From: a virus
Taxonomy: Duplodnaviria > Heunggongvirae > Uroviricota > Caudoviricetes
Strand: one strand, 5' to 3'
Virus record (IMG/VR): IMGVR_UViG_2617270940_000006
DNA length: 56,409 bases
Made by a program: the position numbers and the translations under genes. Of the stretch, positions 2,811 to 25,897 are shown piece after piece (the stretch's first letter is position 1; every line of letters begins with the position of its first letter). The notes under the pieces were generated by a model. That model had not been told where the DNA came from, made no database searches, and was given only the letters and a program-made list of their open reading frames with translations.

Positions 2811-3129
2811 GTGTACCCCCTGATGGCCGGTGATGTAGGAAGGCCATCATTGCTCTCTATTTAAACTGAGTTTTCGACTCAAAGGTTATTTAACTGGGCT
2901 ATAGCCCATTGCGTATGTGTCATCAAATTGTGTACGGCAATTTACCGTACACGTAATATAGAGATGATTGTCACTTTTTTCAACAGACAAATGATAACAA
3001 TTACTAGCAATAGGCAATAACAACCTACTAAATAACCTTTACACCGCAGCCGTAGGCATTTAGGCTATATCGCATATAAGAAAACAAGTTGTTTCATACG
3101 ACAATAATTCACGCAAAGGAAACTCACCA

Positions 3130-3795
3130 ATGACCAAGATCATTGTGGTTGGCGGCACAAAAGGCGGCCCAGGCAAATCTACCGTTGCCCAGCAAATTGC
3201 GGTATGTCTCAAAGTTAAAAAGAAAAAGAAGGTTCACGTCACCGATATCGATATCCAGCGCACCACGACCAGCTGGTGTGAAGACCGTCGCCAGAACGAA
3301 GATCTTGAACTGATCCCGTTCGCTTATGTGCAGGACGACATCGTCAAACATCTTAAATCGCTTCAGGGGCGAACTGATTATGTAGTGGTAGATGCTGGTG
3401 GCTTTGACTCCGAAATTCAGCGTCTGGCGATGCTTATGGCTGATGTAATCATCATCCCGCTGCGCCCTAAACGTCGTGATTTGAAATCTCTGCGTGATAT
3501 CGACCCGATTATCGACAACGTTCGCAATGTGAACGAGAAAGTTAAGATCCGCGCGGTAATAAACCAGTGTCCGTCATTGCCTTCCCAGGTATCACGTATT
3601 CTAGCCGCGAAGGAAATTGTCGAAACTTTCGGCATCGAGGCTGCGCCGGTCAATCTGTACAACCGTAACGTTTATGACGATGCGGAAGAGGCAGGTCGTT
3701 CTATCTTTGAAATGACTGGCGCTGAACGCGATAAGAAGGCAGAAGCCGAGTTCGAAGAGTTTGTAGATTACATCTTGAGTCTGGAGGAAGAATAA
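3130..3795 (+). CDS. parA: ParA-family partition ATPase (small type)
   Basis: Deviant Walker A (GGTKGGPGKST); 221 aa; followed by a small overlapping partner gene. Confidence 0.85.
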   Translation: MTKIIVVGGTKGGPGKSTVAQQIAVCLKVKKKKKVHVTDIDIQRTTTSWCEDRRQNEDLELIPFAYVQDDIVKHLKSLQGRTDYVVVDAGGFDSEIQRLAMLMADVIIIPLRPKRRDLKSLRDIDPIIDNVRNVNEKVKIRAVINQCPSLPSQVSRILAAKEIVETFGIEAAPVNLYNRNVYDDAEEAGRSIFEMTGAERDKKAEAEFEEFVDYILSLEEE

Positions 3796-7470: not shown

Positions 7471-8655
7471 ATGAGCCTTTATGGTATTCAAATACCGAGG
7501 CTTATCAAGATATTACCTGCAAAAAACAGGGGTAAGAACGTGAGCGACTTGAAAGAATTACTGACCGAGCTGGATTTTGAGCAATGGCTCGATATGGAAG
7601 GGATCATCTACCGTCATGGTGGAGTCAGTACTCGCGGACGAGAGGTCAACATTAAAGAGTGTCCGGTATGCGGCAGCTCAAACTGGAAGGTTTATTTCAA
7701 CCTGACCAGTGGTGTCGGCAAATGCTTTGCAGGTGATCATCCCGAAGAGATTCAGTTCAATAAGCTGGTCTTCCTAAAGCATTACAGCGGCAAATCCCGT
7801 CGCGATTTTGAAGAGTACGTCCAGAACGCGCTGATCTCACAAGGTTGGGCGCCGAAGAAGGAAGAGATCGTGCTGGCCAGCAAGGTTGAACTGGAAGGAC
7901 CGGTAGCTCTCCCGCGCCATTACGAACTCCCCATTGACGGTCGTCTTCCTGATTATCTGGTGGAGCGCCAGATTTCCCCGGAGCTGGCCAAATACTTTGA
8001 TCTGCGTTACTGCGTCGAAGGCAAGCACGCATACGTCGATCCGTACACAGACCAGGTCAAAGGACAGGTATTCGATATGCGAATACTGATACCGGTTTAC
8101 GATCTGGATGGCGTGATGAAGACCTTCCAGGGTCGTGACATTACCGGTGCAGCAGAACGCCGGTATCTGTTCCCCATGCAGCTGCCAGCATCGGGTAAAT
8201 TTCTCTACAACGGCCACAATGCAGTCGGCAAACAGACTGTAGTTGTCTGTGAGGGGGCGTTCGATGTTATGGGGGTTAAACGAGCTATTTTTGATGAAGA
8301 AACATTACGCGATTACGTGGAACCGATAGGAACGTTCGGGATGCATCTATCTGGTAACACCACTCAGGATGCAGAAGATCAGTTGGGCGCGTTCCTGACG
8401 CTCAAGGCGCGTGGATTACGTAATGTGATTATGATGTGGGATAGTGAAAAGCAAGCTATACGCAACACGATGGCCGCAGCCAGGCGACTGACCAGTATCG
8501 GTCTTAATGTCAAAGTAGCGTGTTTGGGCGAGGAAGGACTCGATCCCGGCGATGCGACACCGGGGCAGATTATCAAAGCCTACTATTGCGCAAAACCTTA
8601 TTCACGACAGCTTGAACTTTTAAGCAAGGTAAAAGGCATAGCTGCATTAGTTTGA
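7471..8655 (+). CDS. DnaG-like primase (zinc finger + TOPRIM)
   Basis: CPVCGSS...C zinc motif and a TOPRIM-like VVVCEGAFD segment; start chosen at the ATG with the conserved context, not the upstream track start. Confidence 0.8.
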   Translation: MSLYGIQIPRLIKILPAKNRGKNVSDLKELLTELDFEQWLDMEGIIYRHGGVSTRGREVNIKECPVCGSSNWKVYFNLTSGVGKCFAGDHPEEIQFNKLVFLKHYSGKSRRDFEEYVQNALISQGWAPKKEEIVLASKVELEGPVALPRHYELPIDGRLPDYLVERQISPELAKYFDLRYCVEGKHAYVDPYTDQVKGQVFDMRILIPVYDLDGVMKTFQGRDITGAAERRYLFPMQLPASGKFLYNGHNAVGKQTVVVCEGAFDVMGVKRAIFDEETLRDYVEPIGTFGMHLSGNTTQDAEDQLGAFLTLKARGLRNVIMMWDSEKQAIRNTMAAARRLTSIGLNVKVACLGEEGLDPGDATPGQIIKAYYCAKPYSRQLELLSKVKGIAALV

Positions 8656-17560: not shown

Positions 17561-18883
17561 ATGGAAAAACTGATCGCCCTAAAGCACAAGCTGGATGCTA
17601 TTAAAACGATGGGAACCAACGCCAAGAAAGAGGCGCTGGCCAATCTGGATGAATTTGAACAGAGCATGGTCTCGCTAATGCTCAATCCATTCATTCGATT
17701 CGGTGTGAAGAAGTACAAAGTGGCCGAGCCACTCGATACTTCCGTACCCAGCGACCAGAAGGTAGTAGATCTGCTGGAGAAGCTGGCAGCGCGCGAACTG
17801 ACCGGGAACATCGCTATTGCTGCTGTCGAATCACTCGTTGCCTCGATGTGCGCTGACGGGCAGGACGTGTTTCGTCGCTTCCTGCTGAAAGATCCGAAAG
17901 CCGGTGTCGGCATCAGCCTGTGCAACAAGGTGTTCAAAAACCCAATTCCGAAGTTTGAGGTACAGCTGGCGTCTCCGTACAAGGAGAAAGGCGACAAATA
18001 CCCATTTAAACCAAATCCAAAGGCCAAGTGGCCAATGATCGGCAGTCTCAAACTCGATGGTCTCCGGGTTATCTGCGAAGTCATCGTGGACGAGGGTGAG
18101 GTCAATTTCCTGACGCGCACCGGCAATCCGATTACGTCACTCGATCACCTTAAACCAGCCATGCTGGAGCGGGGCAGAGTCTCCGGCTTCAATCACATCT
18201 TCTTCGATGGAGAGGGCACTGCAGGTACATTCAACCAGTCAGTGTCGGCGCTTCGTAAGAAGAACGTGAAAGCCATTGGTGCCGTTTACCACATTTTCGA
18301 TTTCTTCTTACCGGAGTGGCGTGCTCAAGCAAAAAGCAAAGAGTACCTGAAGACCGGTATGAAGCTGAAAGAGCGCCTGGCTATGCTGGTGGCGTTGTTC
18401 CGCAACACTTGCGTGGAAGATTATGCGCAAGATATCCACCTTCATCCGTTCTACATCATCCATAGCCACGAAGATTTCATCGAACGTTTCATGAAGCGAC
18501 TGGACGAGAATGAAGAGGGAGAGATGGGCAAAGATCCGGATTCAGTTTACGAGTTCAAACGTACCCGCAGCTGGTGGAAGCTGAAAGACGAGGATTCAGA
18601 AGACGGTGAAATCATCGACTTCGAGCCTGGCGATCCGGATTCTGGATTTGCGCATACGCTAGGCAAGATAGTGATTCGTCTGGAGAACGGCGTCATCGTT
18701 CGTGCCAGCGGTATCAAGCATAAATACCTGGATGAAATCTGGAACAATCAGGAGAAGTATCGTGGGCGCATCGTTGAGGTTCACTGCCATGAGAAAACGC
18801 CAGACGGTAGCTTACGCCACCCACGTCTGAAGTGGCCGAAATGTCTGCGAGATACCGAAGACCGTATTGGAGATAAAGACTGA
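17561..18883 (+). CDS. ATP-dependent DNA ligase
   Basis: Adenylation motif with the KxDG lysine (IGSLKLDGLRV); 440 aa. Confidence 0.85.
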   Translation: MEKLIALKHKLDAIKTMGTNAKKEALANLDEFEQSMVSLMLNPFIRFGVKKYKVAEPLDTSVPSDQKVVDLLEKLAARELTGNIAIAAVESLVASMCADGQDVFRRFLLKDPKAGVGISLCNKVFKNPIPKFEVQLASPYKEKGDKYPFKPNPKAKWPMIGSLKLDGLRVICEVIVDEGEVNFLTRTGNPITSLDHLKPAMLERGRVSGFNHIFFDGEGTAGTFNQSVSALRKKNVKAIGAVYHIFDFFLPEWRAQAKSKEYLKTGMKLKERLAMLVALFRNTCVEDYAQDIHLHPFYIIHSHEDFIERFMKRLDENEEGEMGKDPDSVYEFKRTRSWWKLKDEDSEDGEIIDFEPGDPDSGFAHTLGKIVIRLENGVIVRASGIKHKYLDEIWNNQEKYRGRIVEVHCHEKTPDGSLRHPRLKWPKCLRDTEDRIGDKD

Positions 18884-19403: not shown

Positions 19404-19709
19404 ATGAGCAATTTGACTTCCTTCGACTGGTGGCTGGCAACCTACCTTGTTGCGGCCGGCTTCGGATTTGCCTTTTACGTTGGTCAGTTAATCGTAAAGC
19501 TACTGCTGATAAGATTCGCCAGCCATAAACGCATAGACGACGGTCTGTGGCGTCTGGGGTCCCTGTTAGAGACGCATTACGGCGAACTCAAGGAAAACGA
19601 AACTATCACTATTCAAGCGAAGCGTTTTACCGCCATCATCACGAGAACTCCGGAACAAAAGGGGAGCCTGATCAAAAAGATAGCAACTAAACGCATTACA
19701 GATAGATAA
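19404..19709 (+). CDS. Small membrane protein
   Basis: 101-aa ORF with an N-terminal TM helix; overlaps the preceding small ORF by ATGA. Confidence 0.4.
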   Translation: MSNLTSFDWWLATYLVAAGFGFAFYVGQLIVKLLLIRFASHKRIDDGLWRLGSLLETHYGELKENETITIQAKRFTAIITRTPEQKGSLIKKIATKRITDR

Positions 19710-20452
19710 GTATTTACTTACTTATCTAATATGTATAAGATCACTTTGTTTTCGTTGAGATGCGACTGTTTGAACGTTAAATATAACTGCAAACGAAGAT
19801 GCATACCTGGCAGTAGCCTAAGAAGCCAAACACCAGCGAGGTCAGTTTCCAGCCTCGTCACCAAAATGGGACACACTGAGCGAGTGTGATTGCAGAACGC
19901 AGAATAGGGCATATTGCACCATCCATGCCCTATTCAATGAAGTAACAGAATGGGCGGTTGGTTTCATCATTCCATTCACCCATCCCGGTTTCAGCTGACC
20001 GTCCATTCTGTTACGTCATTTCCATTACTTATGTCGTTTATACTTGGGTTAAAAGCGGCGACGTAACCCGGCTGACTTGGTTAGTCAGCACATAACGTTG
20101 AGATCACTGATTTTTCTTAAAATCATACAGGCGATTCCACATAGCTGTAGCGACTGATCAATATGTTGGGTTGAACATTAATCGGTTCAGTGATCTCAAC
20201 GTTGTGAAAGCAGGATTAATTAACCCTCTAGTGAAAACATTGTTGCCTTTATTGCCCCTGGCTTCACAACATGTATGATTCCATACATCCAATAAGATTG
20301 AAGAATCTAACGGCAATCAACCACCGAGAAAGATTCCAGATCTTCGCTCATATGAGCGAGCCACATACCTCGTCTGGCACTAACGTAAAGTGCAAGTTGC
20401 GGGAAAGTTTCTGGCTGCCTGGTTGTCCATAAGCTAGTACCGCCGCGAAAAT

Positions 20453-20524
20453 GATGGTGTAGCTCAGTGGTAGAGCGGTTGACTGTTAATCAACTGGTCG
20501 GTGGTTCGAGTCCACCCACCATCG
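20453..20524 (+). tRNA. tRNA-Asn (anticodon GTT)
   Basis: Hand-folded cloverleaf: 7-bp acceptor stem (GATGGTG/CACCATC), D-stem GCTC/GAGC, anticodon stem GTTGA/TCAAC with loop CTGTTAA, T-arm GGTGG-TTCGAGT-CCACC. Confidence 0.85.
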
Positions 20525-20681
20525 CCGACATAGCGCTGAACGGTTTGGATTCGCCACCACCGTCCGAACGAAAGACTCCGCAAATGTCGCCAGACCGTTC
20601 AGCGCTGTGATAGACACGGCAGACGTTTTTTTAACCATTGCTTCTAAGCATCGTAGCAACACTTTTTTCAGCGCAAAATCC

Positions 20682-20704
20682 AAAGGGGCTTCGGCCCCTT
20701 TTTG
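20682..20704 (+). terminator. Rho-independent terminator
   Basis: AAGGGGC-TTCG-GCCCCTT stem-loop followed by a T-run. Confidence 0.7.
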
Positions 20705-20781
20705 CTATCAAGTCGCATATGCAACCAACTTTTTTAGCTTATAGTTAAGTTCAGTAGTAGAATGCTACGCTTCGTCGAGAA

Positions 20782-21297
20782 ATGACGATTATGGAGTCTA
20801 TCGTGAAATTTAAAATCCAGCATTTGCAGGCAGCAGTGGCACTGGTTCTTGCCAGTATCCAGCCGCAACCCAAAGCGGTTGCGTGTCAGCCTACGATTGT
20901 AGAACGGGTTTATGAGATGGGCGCTAGAGTCAACAAAACCGACATCAGTGATCTTACAGCTGCTCTCAATGAATTGGCTAAAGAACTGCGTTCAAGCCGC
21001 GCTGAACTTGCTCGTTATGCTGACACTGACTTCTTTGCTGCTATCAAAGTAGCGGAAGAAATTAAGAATCAAACTATTCATGTAGCCGGTATCGCAGAAT
21101 CTTTTGTTTTGATGTTACCTGAAAAAGACGTCATCATGTCTTACGACAAAAACACTGTTGAGTTTGCGTTTTTTAAGGCTATTAAAATGGTCAGTATTGC
21201 GACCAAAAACTATCTCAATCTGATTGATCAGATTACACACACTTCTGTAGTGCGTGACTCTGGCGTCAACCTTTTAGCCATGAACCATTCTAGCTGA
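20782..21297 (+). CDS. Hypothetical protein
   Basis: 171-aa ORF; no recognisable motif. Confidence 0.45.
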   Translation: MTIMESIVKFKIQHLQAAVALVLASIQPQPKAVACQPTIVERVYEMGARVNKTDISDLTAALNELAKELRSSRAELARYADTDFFAAIKVAEEIKNQTIHVAGIAESFVLMLPEKDVIMSYDKNTVEFAFFKAIKMVSIATKNYLNLIDQITHTSVVRDSGVNLLAMNHSS

Positions 21298-21464
21298 ACT
21301 TTAGCGATCGTCATCTTCTTCATCATTCTTTTTCTTCTAACAAATCATTCTCATCAATCTGGCTCAGATGGCATTCCAAAGTTGGCGTTATTAGGCGCTT
21401 TTTACTATTTAGCGTTTAAGATGGTTTGTCTACATAATTTATTCAGAATTTACGTAAGCTATAT

Positions 21465-21499
21465 AAATGATTCCATACTTGTAAGGTATGGAATCATTT
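21465..21499. promoter_or_regulatory. Perfect 35-bp palindrome (14-7-14), candidate recombinase core site or operator
   Basis: AAATGATTCCATAC-TTGTAAG-GTATGGAATCATTT, about 100 bp upstream of the tyrosine recombinase gene. Confidence 0.45.
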
Positions 21500-21597
21500 T
21501 CAAAAACAGTCTATTTTACTGTTGATCATACAAAAACTGAGGCCTAACACACTGTTTATAAATACAGTAAAAACAGGCTTCACTCAGTGAGTGGACT

Positions 21598-22701
21598 ATG
21601 AAAAACACTTTTGATAAAGCACGCGCAGCAGAAAACACCTCTAGAGAAGCCATCGAGTATCTCGAACGCGCTTCCGGTTTGTCAGCAGTGTCGACCACCA
21701 ATTTCGACGGTGACATGTCGTTTTCTTCCGCATTCATGTTATTCACTCGCTTATCTTTGCTGATAACGAGACGTCGACCTGAAATAGCTGTTCATTGTAT
21801 TTTGATACATGTAATGCCGCATATCTGTGAAGTAAAAGTAAGTGACATTAGTAGGGTTTTAGTCAACCAGCTGGTGAACCCATTAATACTTGAGGGCAAG
21901 ATCGTCCAGGGCAGACGTGTGTTCTCGCTGATGAAGCAGTTTCTCAGTTGGTGTGCATTTCAGGGCTTAATTGATACATCCCCATTGAACGATATGTCGC
22001 TTAACAGAGTAGCCGGTGGCGCGAAGCCCACGCCGCGCGAGCGCAAACTGACCGACGCAGAGGTCTGGGTCTTTTGGAATGTATGGGACTACTTCAACGT
22101 ATGTGAGGGTACAAAGTGGGCGGCCAGATTATGCCTTGTAGCGGCCAGACGACCAGATGAAGTGCTCCGAGCTAAAAGATCAGAATTCAACCTCGAATAT
22201 AATTTATGGAATCAAGGAACGAGGAATAAATCGGCTCGCCAGCACTCGTTACCATTAAGCCCGCTAATGCGCAAATGTGTTGAGGAGCTGATCAAATACG
22301 GAAAAGGCAGCCAGTGGCTTGTTCCTTCAAACAAGAAACAGGGTGAGGATGTGCCAATGTCTAAGGTGGCCATATCACAGGCGTTGAGAAGGATTTTAGA
22401 ACGTCCAGAGTTGATGGAGCTTGAGCCATTTACCCCCCGAGATTTGCGTCGTACTGCGCGTAGTTACTTCCCCGCGTTAGGCATAAGTCAGGAGGTATCC
22501 CGCAAAATTATGAACCACAGTCTTGAGGGGATAGATCGAGTATACGATCGACACGATTATATAGACGAGATGCGAGACGCCTTAAACAGTTTTTCGGCGT
22601 ACATCGCATCAATCGTAGAGAAACAGGATTTAGAGGAGATAGATCATAAGTTCAAGGGAGATCGACTCGCTACTGAGCTAATCCGTGTAAATTTCTCATA
22701 G
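21598..22701 (+). CDS. Tyrosine site-specific recombinase
   Basis: C-terminal catalytic region with RD...LRRTARSYF and HSLEGIDRVYDRHDY, consistent with the R-H-R-Y signature. Confidence 0.8.
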   Translation: MKNTFDKARAAENTSREAIEYLERASGLSAVSTTNFDGDMSFSSAFMLFTRLSLLITRRRPEIAVHCILIHVMPHICEVKVSDISRVLVNQLVNPLILEGKIVQGRRVFSLMKQFLSWCAFQGLIDTSPLNDMSLNRVAGGAKPTPRERKLTDAEVWVFWNVWDYFNVCEGTKWAARLCLVAARRPDEVLRAKRSEFNLEYNLWNQGTRNKSARQHSLPLSPLMRKCVEELIKYGKGSQWLVPSNKKQGEDVPMSKVAISQALRRILERPELMELEPFTPRDLRRTARSYFPALGISQEVSRKIMNHSLEGIDRVYDRHDYIDEMRDALNSFSAYIASIVEKQDLEEIDHKFKGDRLATELIRVNFS

Positions 22702-23094
22702 CGACTTGATTGCCTCAACAACCCGCTCCGACGCACCACGTTGGTCACCGAAACGTCGACGGAAGGCTTCCAGAACTAGTTTTTCATCTTTAGTCAGAGG
22801 GGCTGTGCCTTCGTCGCGAAAAAACGCTAACAGCTCTGGATGACGCTCTTCCAGCACCATTAGCATCAATCGGACCGAATCGGCATCCAATGCTTTAGCC
22901 AACGCTCTGACCTTGTCGATCGGAAGCGGGATTTTGCCGCTCTTGATAAGTGAAAGATTGTTAGGGTTTTTATAGCCTGCTTCTTTCGCGATGGTCGCCT
23001 GGCTTTTCGGAGAAATCGCGATTAAAGCGTCAATGTAAGCAGCGTAGCGACCTACTTTAGCTTCTGTTGTTTCGTTGGTAGCCATAATTATCAA
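22696..23094 (-). CDS. HTH (XRE/Cro-CI-like) transcriptional regulator
   Basis: 132 aa; helix-turn-helix segment TIAKEAGYKNPNNLSLIKSG; convergent with the recombinase gene. Confidence 0.6.
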   Translation of the reverse strand: MIIMATNETTEAKVGRYAAYIDALIAISPKSQATIAKEAGYKNPNNLSLIKSGKIPLPIDKVRALAKALDADSVRLMLMVLEERHPELLAFFRDEGTAPLTKDEKLVLEAFRRRFGDQRGASERVVEAIKSL

Positions 23095-23665
23095 CCTGCG
23101 TGTTTTGATTTTATTTGGTAAGTGCTTACTGATATTACATCAAAGGTTAGTGTTGTAAAGACTTATCTATTTTTTTACGTAGGTTTACTGACCGCAAAAG
23201 GCTTCATTAATAGACAACTATCTAAAAAATAACTCATTTAAGAACTTAAAACTAAGTTGTGTTTGATATATAAGTATTCCGTATTGATACAATAGGTAGT
23301 AGTATTGCAAGGCATTTACGTGTTCAGTTGGATGATATGAAATGAAAAAAATAACTTCTAATTTGATCGCCCTTGAGGTCGGACATACGGTTTCAATTGA
23401 CGATGATGGGGCAGCAGCCATACTCACTGAACTGCCAACAAAGTCTTTGTTACTTGACATGAAAGACGCAACCGCATACATCTTTGAGCTAAAGGGCAAG
23501 TGCTTCACTCTCATCAATACCGGCTGCGGTTCAGTAGCCGTCCGCACAATTTAACCCCCCCTCCCATCCTCTCTAGCGCCTGTACGAACAGATTAGATGC
23601 CTGTTCGTACAGTGATAAATTACGCACATCAGAAAACAAATTGTTTTAACAACAAGGGAATTCTA

Positions 23666-25897
23666 ATGTCCAAAAAAACCACCAAAGCTGTACTGAAAGA
23701 GGTGCAGGATTTTCGCGACTGTGTAAAACGAGTTGTAGCGATGCTTTCAGGTAAACAGATACCTGTTGCAGAACGAGGCAATGAAGCATATGTCCGCTAT
23801 AACCGGCGCGGCGAACCAGTGCTGGTAAACATCCCATCTATACCGGACGACGCGTCGCCAACCCTCATGAACGCAGTGCGTGGTTTTCTCGACCATGAGG
23901 TGGCCCATATTCTCTTTACTGAACCGAAAGTCGCAATGCAGATGCACGAAAGAGGAAAGGCTCCGTCTACGGGGCTTTGGAATGCGCTGGAAGACGTTTT
24001 TATTGAACGCAGAATGGGGCAGGTCTTTAACGGAACCCGGCGTAATTTACTTGCAACACAGAGTCTGGTTATCGACAAATACTTCAGGAATAAAGTACCA
24101 GAAGCGGTTTTAGCCTGTCACGGAGACCAGCGTGAATTGTTTTTGAAATTCTTCCTTTGCCCGGTCGTCCGCGCCTGGGATGGACAAAGCCCCTTCATCG
24201 ATTTTATGGAAGAACACTGGCGCCTTATCGAGAGGCCGGTAGCCTTACTAAAGGAGCATGGTATAGACGTGGCCGTTCGCAATATGTCGAACACTGAGGA
24301 TTGCGTGAAGGTCGCTGCTGCTATAGCCCAAATCATGCAGGATATGAAAGACAAGCCAGAGGGCAAATTACCAGAACTTAAATCATCTGCCAGAAAGCCG
24401 TCGGAGAGCAAAGACGAGTCCGAGGAAACGCCAGAATCAGGTGACGAGCCGTCTCATGGTGACTCTGCATCTAAGCCTGCCAAAGGCGAAGGCGATGACA
24501 AGGAAGAACGAGAAGATGATGCATCAGAAGAGGAAGATTCTGGGGATTCCGATTTGCCTGATTCATTAGATAAGGACTTACCTACACACGTTAAAGATAT
24601 TAGTGATACAGAAAGTAAATATACAGAAGCAGGCCACGAAGAGTCAGGAGACACCCCAGAATCCGATGCTATCGGCATGAAATCAAGTGACTCTGACACC
24701 GATGATGATGGCGGTGAGGACTCCGATACTGATCGTGGGGAAACTGAAGAAGAAGACGTCGAAGGCAAAAAAAATAAAGATGGTGCGGAAGTGCCCAAAG
24801 ACAGTGAGTCTGGCTTTGTTCCTGCGCCGGATGAAATGACTCTGGAGGAGGCGCTAAAGGCGCTCGACGAGATGGAAGACGGAATCGGTGAAATGACCGA
24901 AGACGCACTGTCGGCCACCATCAGCAAAGAGCTTATGAGCGTCTCACCTTCTGATTATCGGCCATACGATCGATCATACGACTTTATCGGGTTGATTGAT
25001 GGAGCCGAAGAGCATGTGAAGCGCACCAGAAAGACGTTCGGTGCAATACCAATGCACTCACCAGTCGACCGCTACCGTATGGTGCCAGAAGGCAGAAAAC
25101 TCTTTGAACTGAAAATCGAAAAACATCTGTCTGCAGGCGTTTCTTCGACGCTGGCCAAAGACCTGGAGCGGGCCATCGCCAGCCGCAACCGAGTTCAGTT
25201 TATACCTGGTCAGAGGCGTGGGCGGATACATGGCGCAAGCCTGTATCGTCTGGCAATGAACGACGACCGAGTGTTCCGCAAGAAGGAAGACCATAGAGCG
25301 GTGAACGCGTGTGTCCAGCAGGTCATCGACTTGTCCGGCTCAATGGATGGCGTGAAGATTCAACTGGCCCTAGCCAGTGCCTATACCATTGCGGATGCTT
25401 TAGATCGTATCAATGTCCCCAACATCATCACCGGCTTTACCACGTTCGGTAGCCCAGATTATGAAACCAGGTCGAAGCGCGGGTTTACACGCTTCGAGGC
25501 GCTCATGCTGCCCATTATCAAAAACTGGAATGAGAAAGCAAACTCTCCAGAGATCCGTGCTCGCATGGGATGCGTATGTGAGACGTTCCCCCTGCTCAAT
25601 AACGTCGATGGTGAGAGTGTCGCGCAACTGGCTACCCTGTTTGCAGGGCGAATGGAGGACAAAAAGATCATGCTGGTTATGAGTGATGGGGAGCCATGTG
25701 CTACAGGTAGTGGATTCCATCAGCATTTACGAACCGTCACCAAAGAAATTGAGACCTTGAGCGACATCGAACTGATGGCTATCGGCATTCTGACCGACGA
25801 ACCACGGCGTTACTACAAAAATTACGCACTGGTTAACAGTGTTGAAGAGTTAGGGCCGTCAGTCGTCACTGAGTTATCTCGTATCATTCTTGGGTAA
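23666..25897 (+). CDS. VWA-domain protein (CobT-like) with long acidic linker
   Basis: MIDAS-type DxSxS motif (DLSGSMDG) in the C-terminal domain; about 180-aa D/E/S-rich low-complexity stretch; start placed at the ATG with the conserved context. Confidence 0.65.
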   Translation: MSKKTTKAVLKEVQDFRDCVKRVVAMLSGKQIPVAERGNEAYVRYNRRGEPVLVNIPSIPDDASPTLMNAVRGFLDHEVAHILFTEPKVAMQMHERGKAPSTGLWNALEDVFIERRMGQVFNGTRRNLLATQSLVIDKYFRNKVPEAVLACHGDQRELFLKFFLCPVVRAWDGQSPFIDFMEEHWRLIERPVALLKEHGIDVAVRNMSNTEDCVKVAAAIAQIMQDMKDKPEGKLPELKSSARKPSESKDESEETPESGDEPSHGDSASKPAKGEGDDKEEREDDASEEEDSGDSDLPDSLDKDLPTHVKDISDTESKYTEAGHEESGDTPESDAIGMKSSDSDTDDDGGEDSDTDRGETEEEDVEGKKNKDGAEVPKDSESGFVPAPDEMTLEEALKALDEMEDGIGEMTEDALSATISKELMSVSPSDYRPYDRSYDFIGLIDGAEEHVKRTRKTFGAIPMHSPVDRYRMVPEGRKLFELKIEKHLSAGVSSTLAKDLERAIASRNRVQFIPGQRRGRIHGASLYRLAMNDDRVFRKKEDHRAVNACVQQVIDLSGSMDGVKIQLALASAYTIADALDRINVPNIITGFTTFGSPDYETRSKRGFTRFEALMLPIIKNWNEKANSPEIRARMGCVCETFPLLNNVDGESVAQLATLFAGRMEDKKIMLVMSDGEPCATGSGFHQHLRTVTKEIETLSDIELMAIGILTDEPRRYYKNYALVNSVEELGPSVVTELSRIILG

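Follow-up and report, generated by a model that had tools for sequence, protein, structure and literature searches.

Transfer-messenger RNA (tmRNA) and SmpB form the main bacterial ribosome-rescue system, which some phages need for their growth. Natural two-piece tmRNAs exist, and phage T4 encodes in its tRNA cluster the stable non-tRNA RNAs species 1 and 2 (RNA C and D), which are probably co-processed and whose function has long been unknown. Phage-borne tmRNA genes are also known: mycobacteriophage DS6A carries a fragment that comprises only the tRNA-like domain and is thought to inhibit the host tmRNA, full tmRNAs are found in the Bxz1 group and in Bacillus phage G, and in a tmRNA survey of RefSeq viruses and plasmids by Hudson et al., enterobacterial phages and plasmids yielded no ssrA (PMC4131195). 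Here we describe a tmRNA-like RNA element encoded by an SSU5-like phage-plasmid of Escherichia, IMG/VR virus record IMGVR_UViG_2617270940_000006, whose whole stretch of 56,409 nucleotides is referred to below as the window. A preliminary description of the window had drawn attention to inverted repeats around a tRNA-Asn gene (19941-20606). The most informative part, the tmRNA-like element at 19747-19907, begins about 190 nt upstream of that interval and was missed. As judged from its sequence, the element is a new tmRNA derivative that keeps the template half and has an added antisense arm; since no tRNA-like domain could be found in it, it is missed by tools that search for that domain.

The tmRNA-like core and its relatives

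A covariance model built from 18 non-SSU5 phages (R2) gave a single match in the 56-kb window, at 19747-19906 (81.4 bits, E value of 3.9e-17), and a model that included the SSU5 lineage (R1) scored 125 bits at the core. At the gathering thresholds of Rfam the tRNA was the sole match in the region. Weak tmRNA-family matches appeared in E-value mode at 19688-19872 (RF04321, 19.7 bits with a threshold of 47; RF01850, 14.7 bits with a threshold of 84), due to the reading frame at 19789-19821 that is described below, and such subthreshold tmRNA matches were the only family-level Rfam signals, obtained in four lineages. We thus consider it very probable that the first 160 nt of the RNA represent a member of a tmRNA-derived family. 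The anatomy of this family comprises an invariant 5' GUUUUCG, a variable loop, GCGAC(U), an A-rich linker with A at position -4, a 10-codon frame, a stem-loop with the stop codon and two H-type pseudoknots.

Sensitive BLAST searches retrieved 417 phage records with 19735-20115 as a query and 773 with a Vi1-like member; T4 was not among the phage matches listed. The family occurs in Ounavirinae (Felix O1-like phages, SUSP2, and Erwinia phage phiEa21-4), Ackermannviridae (Vi01), siphoviruses of 45-48 kb, lambdoid phages, N4-like Gamaleyavirus, Chaseviridae (Faunus) and the P1-like SJ46, and the element is usually found inside or beside tRNA clusters. In lambdoid phages it lies just downstream of the Q antiterminator gene; this is where a short late-promoter transcript would be made. 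It was also present in 690 of 5426 complete E. coli genomes (13%), phage-plasmids being the most frequent location, and the matches listed for these genomes carried no annotation. The element is absent from Rfam 15, and full-text literature searches returned no description of the family. The family is new, widespread, undescribed and unannotated.

The frame at 19789-19821, which would encode ANEDAYLAVA (the ssrA tag of E. coli being ANDENYALAA), has no in-frame start codon, and a TGA stands at 19771. It follows the linker AUAACU (19783-19788) with A at -4, a position that is kept in all variants (AUAACU-GCA, AUAAAU-GCA and ACAAGU-GCA) and that corresponds to A86 of E. coli tmRNA, which together with U85 sets the frame (PMC2481249). 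Closer relatives were obtained by collecting 80 related loci via the neighboring ligase gene and aligning the noncoding stretch. Within this set, 56 distinct relatives, retrieved without reference to the window frame, encode ANEEVYLAVA, ANEDTYLAVA, ANDNQYLAVA and similar peptides. Indels occur directly upstream of the frame and never within it, and the changes TAC/TAT, CTG/CTA and GCC/GCT/GCA are all synonymous; codons 1 and 2 show synonymous changes only, and the last position is occupied by any of the four Ala codons.

The frame consists of 10 codons plus a stop in every lineage. The tags across the family are ANEDAYLAVA, ANDNQYLAVA, ANEEVYLAVA, ANDEQFLAVA and, among members found by BLAST without bias, ANDAQFLAVA (with GTG GCG replacing GTA GCC), ANDSEMRMVA, ANDDLMMVAA and ANDDVVLMAA. 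Two close Vi1-like groups differ by GCA/GCT, AAC/AAT and AAT/AAC, all of which are silent in the tag frame and nonsilent in the +1 frame. The constant length and the silent changes point to selection on the peptide. A small open reading frame (ORF) in the +1 frame (AUG CAA ACG ...) was considered and rejected, since its AUG has not been kept and the encoded amino acids would be altered by the informative substitutions. Tag endings VA or AA are similar to ClpXP degrons (PMC10862746).

The structure that follows the frame is supported by covariation. In 76 distinct sequences, 90.9% of the cells were paired, compared to 32-50% with slid partners, and the covariation score was reached by none of 500 shuffles; this was read from the model-based alignment, a naive all-against-all scan on the global alignment being too noisy. 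Stem 1 of pseudoknot A varies as UA 39/CG 34 and GC 58/AU 15, and its stem 2, which is outside the model, as CG 55/UA 21, GC 41/CG 21/AU 14 and AU 50/GC 7. Stem 1 of pseudoknot B shows compensatory changes as well (CG 71/UA 5; CG 68/UA 6/GC 2). Its stem 2 is formed by complementary pairs that differ by lineage (GCCC/GGGC, GCCCAC/GUGGGC, CCCUGA/UCAGGG, and GACGGGAG/CUCCCGUC), and its poor column-wise count (53.7%) is due to their different lengths. The helix 5-like stem is paired in 100% of the sequences with variation only from G-C to G-U (GC 44, GU 32), and an alternative pairing of CUGG with CCAG (19807-19810 with 19833-19836) exists. In a putative equivalent of pseudoknot 1, 5' of the frame, the pairs are invariant and partly absent in the SSU5 lineage. 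In lambdoid phages (L086 and others) and the N4-like St11Ph5 (L209), a terminal helix closes the RNA in the manner of tmRNA helix P2, with nothing beyond it; its 5' strand is (A)GUGCUCUUUCC and its 3' strand, which is lost in some lambdoid members, is GGUAAGAGCAUU.

The antisense arm and a proposed action on host trans-translation

When family model R1 was compared with the E. coli ssrA locus, the tag region was matched on the sense strand, and the 5' part of the model also matched the opposite strand. The phage 5' sequence AGUUUUCGUC..GCGACU..UUUGCGGGCUUUUU is complementary to the tmRNA sequence AAAAAGCCGCAAAAAAUAGUC followed by GCA AAC GAC GAA AAC U. According to RNAduplex, nt 1-31 of the window RNA pair with nt 75-105 of E. 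coli tmRNA at -28.2 kcal/mol, compared to -12.8 kcal/mol with their own tag region; across the family, the duplexes with tmRNA nt 54-106 range from -26 to -40 kcal/mol and those with the own tag region from -13 to -16 kcal/mol. The phage linker and codons 3-6 differ from those of the host exactly at the would-be pairing sites. In the family, the antisense span begins in the 3' part of host tmRNA pseudoknot 1, crosses the resume codon and ends at codon 6, and in the SSU5 lineage it is shorter, covering roughly tmRNA nt 75-105 (linker, resume codon and first codons). In lambdoid, Felix O1-like and Vi1-like members, the ssrA-antisense alignment outscored each of 1000 shuffles. Moreover, every lineage has kept GUUUUCG unchanged in spite of the variation in codons 3-6 of the phage's own frame, and this argues for an invariant target in trans.

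These features suggest how the RNA might act. A structured RNA of ∼460 nt (19747 to about 20206) would be made from the promoter at about 19713-19741, and its 5' segment would pair with host tmRNA across the resume codon, masking the host tag template. The minimum effect would be a block of the host template, as seen in vitro for antisense oligonucleotides that tell apart tmRNAs by their tag template and abolish >95% of trans-translation (PMC7038980). The duplex could further tether the phage RNA beside the host alanyl-tRNA-like domain, so that the phage linker and resume codon would emerge at the place of those of the host and the antisense-resistant phage tag frame would be translated instead. 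Such a hybrid would resemble a two-piece tmRNA, and stalled proteins would receive a phage-specified tag. Since the frame looks translated and yet lacks both a start codon and a tRNA-like domain, tethering to the host tRNA-like domain is the most economical reading. It appears reasonably probable to us that the RNA acts on host trans-translation by pairing with tmRNA; the template swap itself, with the ribosome entering on the host tRNA-like domain and resuming on the phage template, is a more tentative proposal.

Several points weigh against this explanation. The antisense match of the window itself is modest, being equaled by 11 of 1000 shuffles and by 9 of 300 in a second test, and its duplex energy has a z score of only -1.6 relative to mononucleotide shuffles, so that the argument draws on homology with strongly matching family members; the SSU5 lineage is also devoid of the antisense part that covers pseudoknot 1. 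Such a duplex would disrupt or crowd pseudoknot 1, and we know of no ribosome that resumes on a template bound to tmRNA by an intermolecular duplex alone. The phage tags still look like ClpXP degrons, so the gain from a tag-for-tag swap is unclear. The pattern by which most family members were obtained from IMG/VR fixes codons 7-10, and only the BLAST- and ligase-derived sets are unbiased there. The promoter, ends and processing of the RNA are all predicted, and an RNA-seq survey of Yersinia pestis reported no small RNA (sRNA) at the homologue on plasmid pMT1, the pMT1 sRNAs sR082 and sR083 mapping elsewhere. Finally, the lineage-specific 3' 300 nt of the RNA are left without explanation.

The antisense segment could also be all that matters, in which case the RNA would be a pure inhibitor that sequesters host tmRNA, blocking tagging or rescue or triggering cleavage, with the frame and pseudoknots serving as an untranslated scaffold or a protein-binding mimic. 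This segment is the most invariant part of the element, antisense to the template region suffices to block trans-translation in vitro (PMC7038980), the inhibitory role ascribed to a phage tmRNA fragment provides a precedent (PMC4131195), and no tRNA-like domain was found. However, the frame has kept exactly 10 codons without indels across very divergent lineages, its codons 1, 2 and 10 change only synonymously, positions 3-4 stay acidic or amide, and the C terminus stays hydrophobic-Ala. Since selection at the level of the peptide is not expected of an untranslated scaffold, we regard a pure inhibitor as unlikely.

A self-sufficient tmRNA of an unusual kind, with an acceptor part that is cryptic or encoded separately (e.g., by a neighboring tRNA-like gene) and no need for host tmRNA, seems improbable. 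It would be in line with the constant position of the element beside tRNA genes or tRNA-like units and with the existence of natural two-piece tmRNAs, and ARAGORN at relaxed settings indeed reported, for SUSP2, SJ46 and St11Ph5, a "permuted tmRNA" that includes the correct tag. These calls borrowed upstream tRNAs or terminator hairpins, however, and the permuted search at normal stringency was negative. ARAGORN found no tRNA-like domain in the window, not even one built on the tag when the thresholds were relaxed, and at normal stringency the 49 family representatives were negative as well. Rfam in E-value mode and motif searches for a T arm or acceptor strand returned only unrelated tRNAs and tRNA-like units, and the only T-arm motif in the region was that of the tRNA-Asn, with U3-A70. 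No GGGGCCG-type 5' strand was present in Vi1-like loci, and no acceptor-strand complement was found inside the element; the 200 nt upstream of it consist of a protein-coding 3' end and the promoter, with no acceptor piece. The neighboring tRNAs differ by lineage (Asn, Arg, Ile, and "Ala(cgc)" with U3-A70), and none has the G3.U70 alanine identity pair. Self-sufficiency would moreover leave the antisense segment unexplained.

Two observations on these neighbors are worth recording. The sole annotated tRNA of St11Ph5, "tRNA-Ala(cgc)" (L209, 406-477), lies 125 nt upstream of the element and has U3-A70 and G5.U68 instead of G3.U70. In the Vi1-like loci L170, L127, L157 and L194, the 60-450 nt downstream of the element contain consecutive tRNA-like units whose T arms are good and whose closing stems are long, e.g., GCCGUUAUAUCUGACU...GGGUUCGACUCCCUAAAACGGCUCCA; neither ARAGORN nor Rfam called these units as tRNAs.

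The inverted repeats and the proposed transcription unit

The explanation that we favor for the locus as a whole, with guarded confidence, is a + strand transcription unit for stable RNAs of an SSU5-like phage-plasmid, in which membership in the tmRNA-derived family is combined with action through pairing with host tmRNA. Its predicted features are collected in Table 1. The three inverted repeats noted in the preliminary description are all real: the 13-bp stem with a 49-nt loop lies exactly where it had been placed (20532-20544/20594-20606), the perfect 17-bp repeat with its 76-nt spacer is shifted by 1 nt, to 20094-20110/20187-20203, and the 12-bp repeat has its left arm at 19941-19952, as reported, and its right arm 2 nt off, at 20004-20015. 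They can be extended to 20 nt (20529-20548/20590-20609), to 20 nt at 95% (20091-20110/20187-20206), and to 23 nt at 91% (19936-19958/19998-20020), respectively, and there is an additional perfect 11-bp hairpin (19902-19912/19925-19935). When 19700-20800 was shuffled 60 times with its dinucleotides preserved, the longest perfect inverted repeat measured 8.1 nt on average and at most 11 nt, compared to 17 nt in the real sequence.

Table 1. Predicted features of the RNA locus, in window coordinates
Feature	Position	Strand	Basis
Putative promoter of the long RNA: TTTACT (19713-19718), 17 nt, TAAGAT (19736-19741)	19713-19741	+	Read from sequence
Core of the tmRNA-like phage RNA family	19747-19907	+	Covariance models R2 and R1
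5' domain antisense to host tmRNA: GUUUUCGU (19748-19755) and GCGACUGUUU (19762-19771)	19748-19771	+	RNAduplex, alignment
Tag-like frame GCA AAC GAA GAT GCA TAC CTG GCA GTA GCC TAA (ANEDAYLAVA, stop)	19789-19821	+	Read from sequence
Helix 5-like stem UGGC (19808-19811) with GCCA (19825-19828), stop codon in loop	19808-19828	+	Weak support
Pseudoknot A: stem 1 CGAGG (19837-19841)/CCUCG (19853-19857); stem 2 UCCA (19848-19851)/UGGG (19867-19870)	19837-19870	+	Covariation
Pseudoknot B: stem 1 CACACU (19872-19877)/AGUGUG (19883-19888); stem 2 GCG (19880-19882)/CGC (19898-19900)	19872-19900	+	Covariation
Perfect 11-bp hairpin	19902-19935	+	Five compensated versions in relatives, e.g., GGAGAGGGCAU/AUGCCCUCUCC and GGAGGGAACAU/AUGUUCCCUCC
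Long hairpin (first reported as the 12-bp repeat; stem of ∼25 bp)	19936-20020	+	Alignment columns 44-70 pair with 111-138
Stem UUAUGUCGUU with GGCGACGUAA	20029-20070	+	RNAalifold columns 147-156 with 179-188; three U.G pairs invariant, + strand
Hairpin GCUGACU-UGGUU-AGUCAGC	20073-20091	+	Compensated, GC 10/AU 1; UG 6/CG 5
Stem of 19-20 bp around a poorly conserved 76-nt segment (first reported as the 17-bp repeat)	20091-20206	+	Compensation in relatives
Promoter-like site TTGCCC-16-TATGAT upstream of the tRNA	20252-20279	+	9/12; -10 block conserved (0.88 at 20270-20289)
tRNA-Asn (GTT)	20453-20526	+	ARAGORN; Rfam tRNA, 76.2 bits
Trailer stem-loop after the last tRNA (first reported as a 13-bp stem; ∼18-20 bp)	20529-20609	+	18 conserved pairs
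Terminator region: weak stem and T run (20604-20630); strong GGGGCUUCGGCCCC-U5, read from sequence (about 20683-20707)	20604-20707	+	

For the + strand of 19747-20206 a folding energy of -157.4 kcal/mol was obtained, which none of 100 shuffles reached (z = -7.0, compared to -4.9 for the - strand), and in the alignment of relatives the consensus energies were better for the + strand than for the - strand. RNAalifold applied to 11 relatives yielded 71 pairs, 13 of them compensated, and many G.U pairs that are possible on the + strand only. The conservation of the repeats in related elements could be confirmed at the level of pairing: two-sided changes keep it at 19902-19935, 19936-20020, 20029-20070, 20073-20091, 20091-20206 and 20529-20609, all with + strand-only G.U pairs. 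In the long hairpin at 19936-20020 the latter include GU 9/11, GU 8/11 and UG 9/11, and the apical pairs are compensated; the stem at 20091-20206 has the compensated pairs GC 7/AU 4, CG 8/UG 2/UA 1 and GC 6/GU 2/AU 2. Since these compensatory and G.U changes work on the + strand only, they indicate selection on an RNA fold and not on a DNA site, and we are highly confident that the repeats are stems of a + strand RNA.

The fold suggested for the trailer stem at 20529-20609 was likewise supported, with 18 pairs conserved across relatives, including one compensated pair (AU 6/GC 3) and one invariant U.G on the + strand; its loop is variable except for GACUCCGC, and in relatives it sits after tRNA-Asn or tRNA-Ser. 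The long perfect stems of 18-25 bp are putative RNase III-like processing sites. A pairing of GGGUU with AACCC or AGCCC, which overlaps the stem at 20029-20070 and shows wobble variation, is a possible pseudoknot. In contrast to the core, the 300 nt at 19900-20206 are specific to the SSU5 lineage. The remainder of the 460-nt RNA, the block at 20366-20415 and the trailer loop showed no similarity or complementarity to tmRNA above shuffles. A closing helix between the right arm of the 17-bp repeat, AGUGAUCU, and 19738-19745 was rejected, since 19741-19745 varies without compensation and lies upstream of the probable start site.

This start site of the long RNA would be at about 19746-19748, as 19741-19745 is the only variable stretch ahead of the invariant GTTTTCG. 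The putative promoter scored 8/12, slightly below the scan threshold; its -10 element is conserved in relatives and reads TATGAT in the L070 group. SUSP2 (TTGACA-17-TATAGT) and phiEa21-4 (TTGACA-17-TAATCT) have consensus promoters at the same distance of 6-7 nt from AGTTTTCG. Beyond the structured RNA, transcription would continue, or restart at 20252-20279, through tRNA-Asn, the trailer stem and the terminators (to about 20707). No intrinsic terminator was found before tRNA-Asn, the tRNA is kept in nearly all relatives and the GGGGCUUCGGCCCC-U5 terminator is invariant in them; transcription probably runs on through tRNA-Asn to the trailer stem and terminator. The preliminary description was right that the region holds no convincing ORF, as far as ordinary ORFs are concerned, and of the three roles that it had offered, i.e., packaging site, origin or small-RNA locus, the last is correct in kind, except that the RNA is not small but long and highly structured.

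Two further observations concern the tRNA part of the unit. The relatives L007, L034 and L054 carry up to four tRNAs (Asn, Tyr, Thr and Ser) before the same trailer stem, where the window and SSU5 have only Asn. A conserved block, CTCGTCTGGCACTAACGTAAAGTGCAAGTTGCGGGAAAG at 20371-20409, with 0.84-0.91 identity in relatives, lies 45-80 nt upstream of tRNA-Asn and was no more complementary to tmRNA or the long RNA than shuffled sequences were.

The same data bear on the idea that the whole is an ordinary leader and trailer of a phage tRNA operon, in which the stems serve processing or stability and the likeness to tmRNA is a decaying relic of captured ssrA DNA. The long stems do flank the tRNA and end at the terminator, the 17-bp stem is missing in one relative and the 3' 300 nt are lineage specific. 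Nevertheless, the stretch 19710-20110 is 80-97% conserved among relatives, compared to only ∼73% identity in the flanking genes, and it is the tmRNA-like core that is conserved most (91-97% at 19810-19890) and is common to phages that are otherwise dissimilar. Together with the purifying selection on the peptide and the covariation of the pseudoknots, which are unlike a relic, this makes a mere operon leader quite improbable.

At the DNA level, the GATC and TGATCA elements previously noted in the arms and spacer are literally there, but they are neither enriched nor conserved: the 5 GATC sites in 1.1 kb equal the window average of 3.85 per kb, and GATC in the 17-bp arms is lineage specific, relatives reading GAGGCCAC, GAGGTCAC or GAGACCAC. 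The 17-bp repeat also recombines as DNA and is dispensable in at least one lineage. In L026 (about 8542-8653, the homologue of 20091-20206), the 76-nt segment between the arms is inverted, and in L073 (about 8534-8553), the entire 17-bp stem is deleted, with a single AACGTTG copy remaining. A DNA element (origin, packaging site or operator occupied by a protein) whose palindromes would be bound or form cruciforms could account for long palindromes in a noncoding stretch, for the recurrence of the words CGTTGAGAT and AGATCACT at 19738-19761 and in the 17-bp arms and for the L026 inversion, but is very improbable, since the arms vary with compensation and strand-specific G.U pairs, the repeated words vary as well (GAGGCCAC and others), GATC is not enriched, there is no DnaA box (TTWTNCACA) in 19700-20700 and no iteron family at the locus, where only two-copy direct repeats of 10-17 nt occur, L073 lacks the repeat, and the homologous region in the phage SSU5 record is mid-genome (41.8-42.6 kb of 103 kb). 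These findings lend no support to an origin or a packaging site.

The + strand RNA locus is widely distributed among plasmids. The interval 19700-20800 has 99.9% identity with E. coli plasmid NZ_CP032074 and was matched in 808 plasmid records from Klebsiella, Escherichia, Enterobacter, Yersinia (pMT1), Salmonella and others, and 19700-20566 has 91.7% identity with Salmonella phage SSU5. The GC content of 0.46-0.47 is the same as in the surroundings, with no sign of the AT-rich unwinding element of an origin. An ATP-dependent DNA ligase gene (17561-18883) and small ORFs flank the locus on one side, and a CobT-like gene (23597-25897) flanks it on the other. The ORF at 19404-19709 is called a "C-type natriuretic protein" in many public records yet has no Pfam match, and this name is apparently an annotation error that has spread between records. 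A perfect 10-bp AT-rich hairpin (19703-19728) follows its stop codon and overlaps the putative -35 element of the RNA promoter. In Y. pestis pMT1 (NC_004838.1, 76594-77107; NZ_CP009714.1, 69857-70382), a homologue of 19700-20228 with ∼91% identity covers the entire tmRNA-like RNA; the similarity breaks off beside the F1 capsule operon gene caf1R, and pMT1 has lost the tRNA.

Between the terminator of the tRNA operon and the CobT-like gene, the window carries a block of ∼2.8 kb (20710-23500) that is absent from SSU5. It contains an ORF at 20782-21297 without a Pfam match, a tyrosine integrase gene (21598-22701, PF00589) and an ORF on the - strand (22696-23094), and similar blocks are present in L031 (91%) and in the Buttiauxella contig L083 (78%). 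The block may be a small integrative element using the end of the tRNA operon, although no duplicated tRNA end was found at it. BLAST segments starting from 20502 had hinted at a duplicated tRNA 3' end as an attachment site, but there was no second copy, and the relatives simply carry extra tRNAs (Asn-Tyr-Thr-Ser). A second tRNA gene of the window, tRNA-Lys(ttt) at 3118-3198 on the - strand, is remote from the locus and overlaps the start of a + strand ORF (3130-3795).

Comparison with known systems

The family is present in ∼770 sequenced phages, including close P1 relatives, lambdoid prophages, Felix O1-like phages, Vi01 and SSU5-type phage-plasmids, as well as in about one-eighth of the complete E. 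coli genomes and on the plague plasmid pMT1, suggesting that interference with ribosome rescue is common among enterobacterial phages. If the template swap took place, it would be a hijack of ribosome rescue in trans and a new form of translation reprogramming that is common to P1-, SSU5-, Felix O1-, Vi1- and N4-like, lambdoid, and Chaseviridae phages of Enterobacterales; it would represent a new mode of host takeover, a natural experiment on the choice of the resume codon and a ready design for retargeting trans-translation. If only the antisense part worked, the RNA would be the first natural antisense regulator of tmRNA found in our literature searches. In either case, annotation pipelines should include the tmRNA-like phage RNA family.

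With one-piece tmRNA (SsrA, RF00023), the phage RNA shares a start-less, Ala-first frame of 10 codons that ends in hydrophobic-Ala and UAA, an A-rich linker with A at -4, a stop codon in a hairpin loop, H-type pseudoknots after the frame and a tag that is clearly related to the enterobacterial ANDENYALAA. Unlike one-piece tmRNA, it has no acceptor stem, T arm, G3.U70 or CCA, scores below every Rfam tmRNA gathering score (12-25 bits compared to 47-84), carries a tmRNA-antisense segment and is encoded by phages beside tRNA genes. The two-piece (permuted) tmRNAs of alpha- and betaproteobacteria and cyanobacteria (RF01850 and RF04321), which are the best weak Rfam matches of the phage RNA, offer a precedent for a tRNA-like part and a template on separate, base-paired RNAs. 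There, however, both pieces come from one gene and are paired via the acceptor stem and helix P2, whereas here the partner would be a complete host tmRNA, engaged through its own template region.

Trans-acting antisense sRNAs resemble the phage RNA in having an invariant seed of 7-8 nt, at or near the predicted 5' end, that matches an abundant host RNA by complementarity where the latter is single stranded. They differ in that the target here would be a stable noncoding RNA and in that the phage RNA is 160-460 nt long, with pseudoknots, a translated-looking frame and no terminator-type Hfq module seen. The DS6A fragment is similarly phage borne and derived from tmRNA, but it keeps the tRNA-like half and would titrate SmpB, whereas the new family keeps the opposite half together with an antisense arm.

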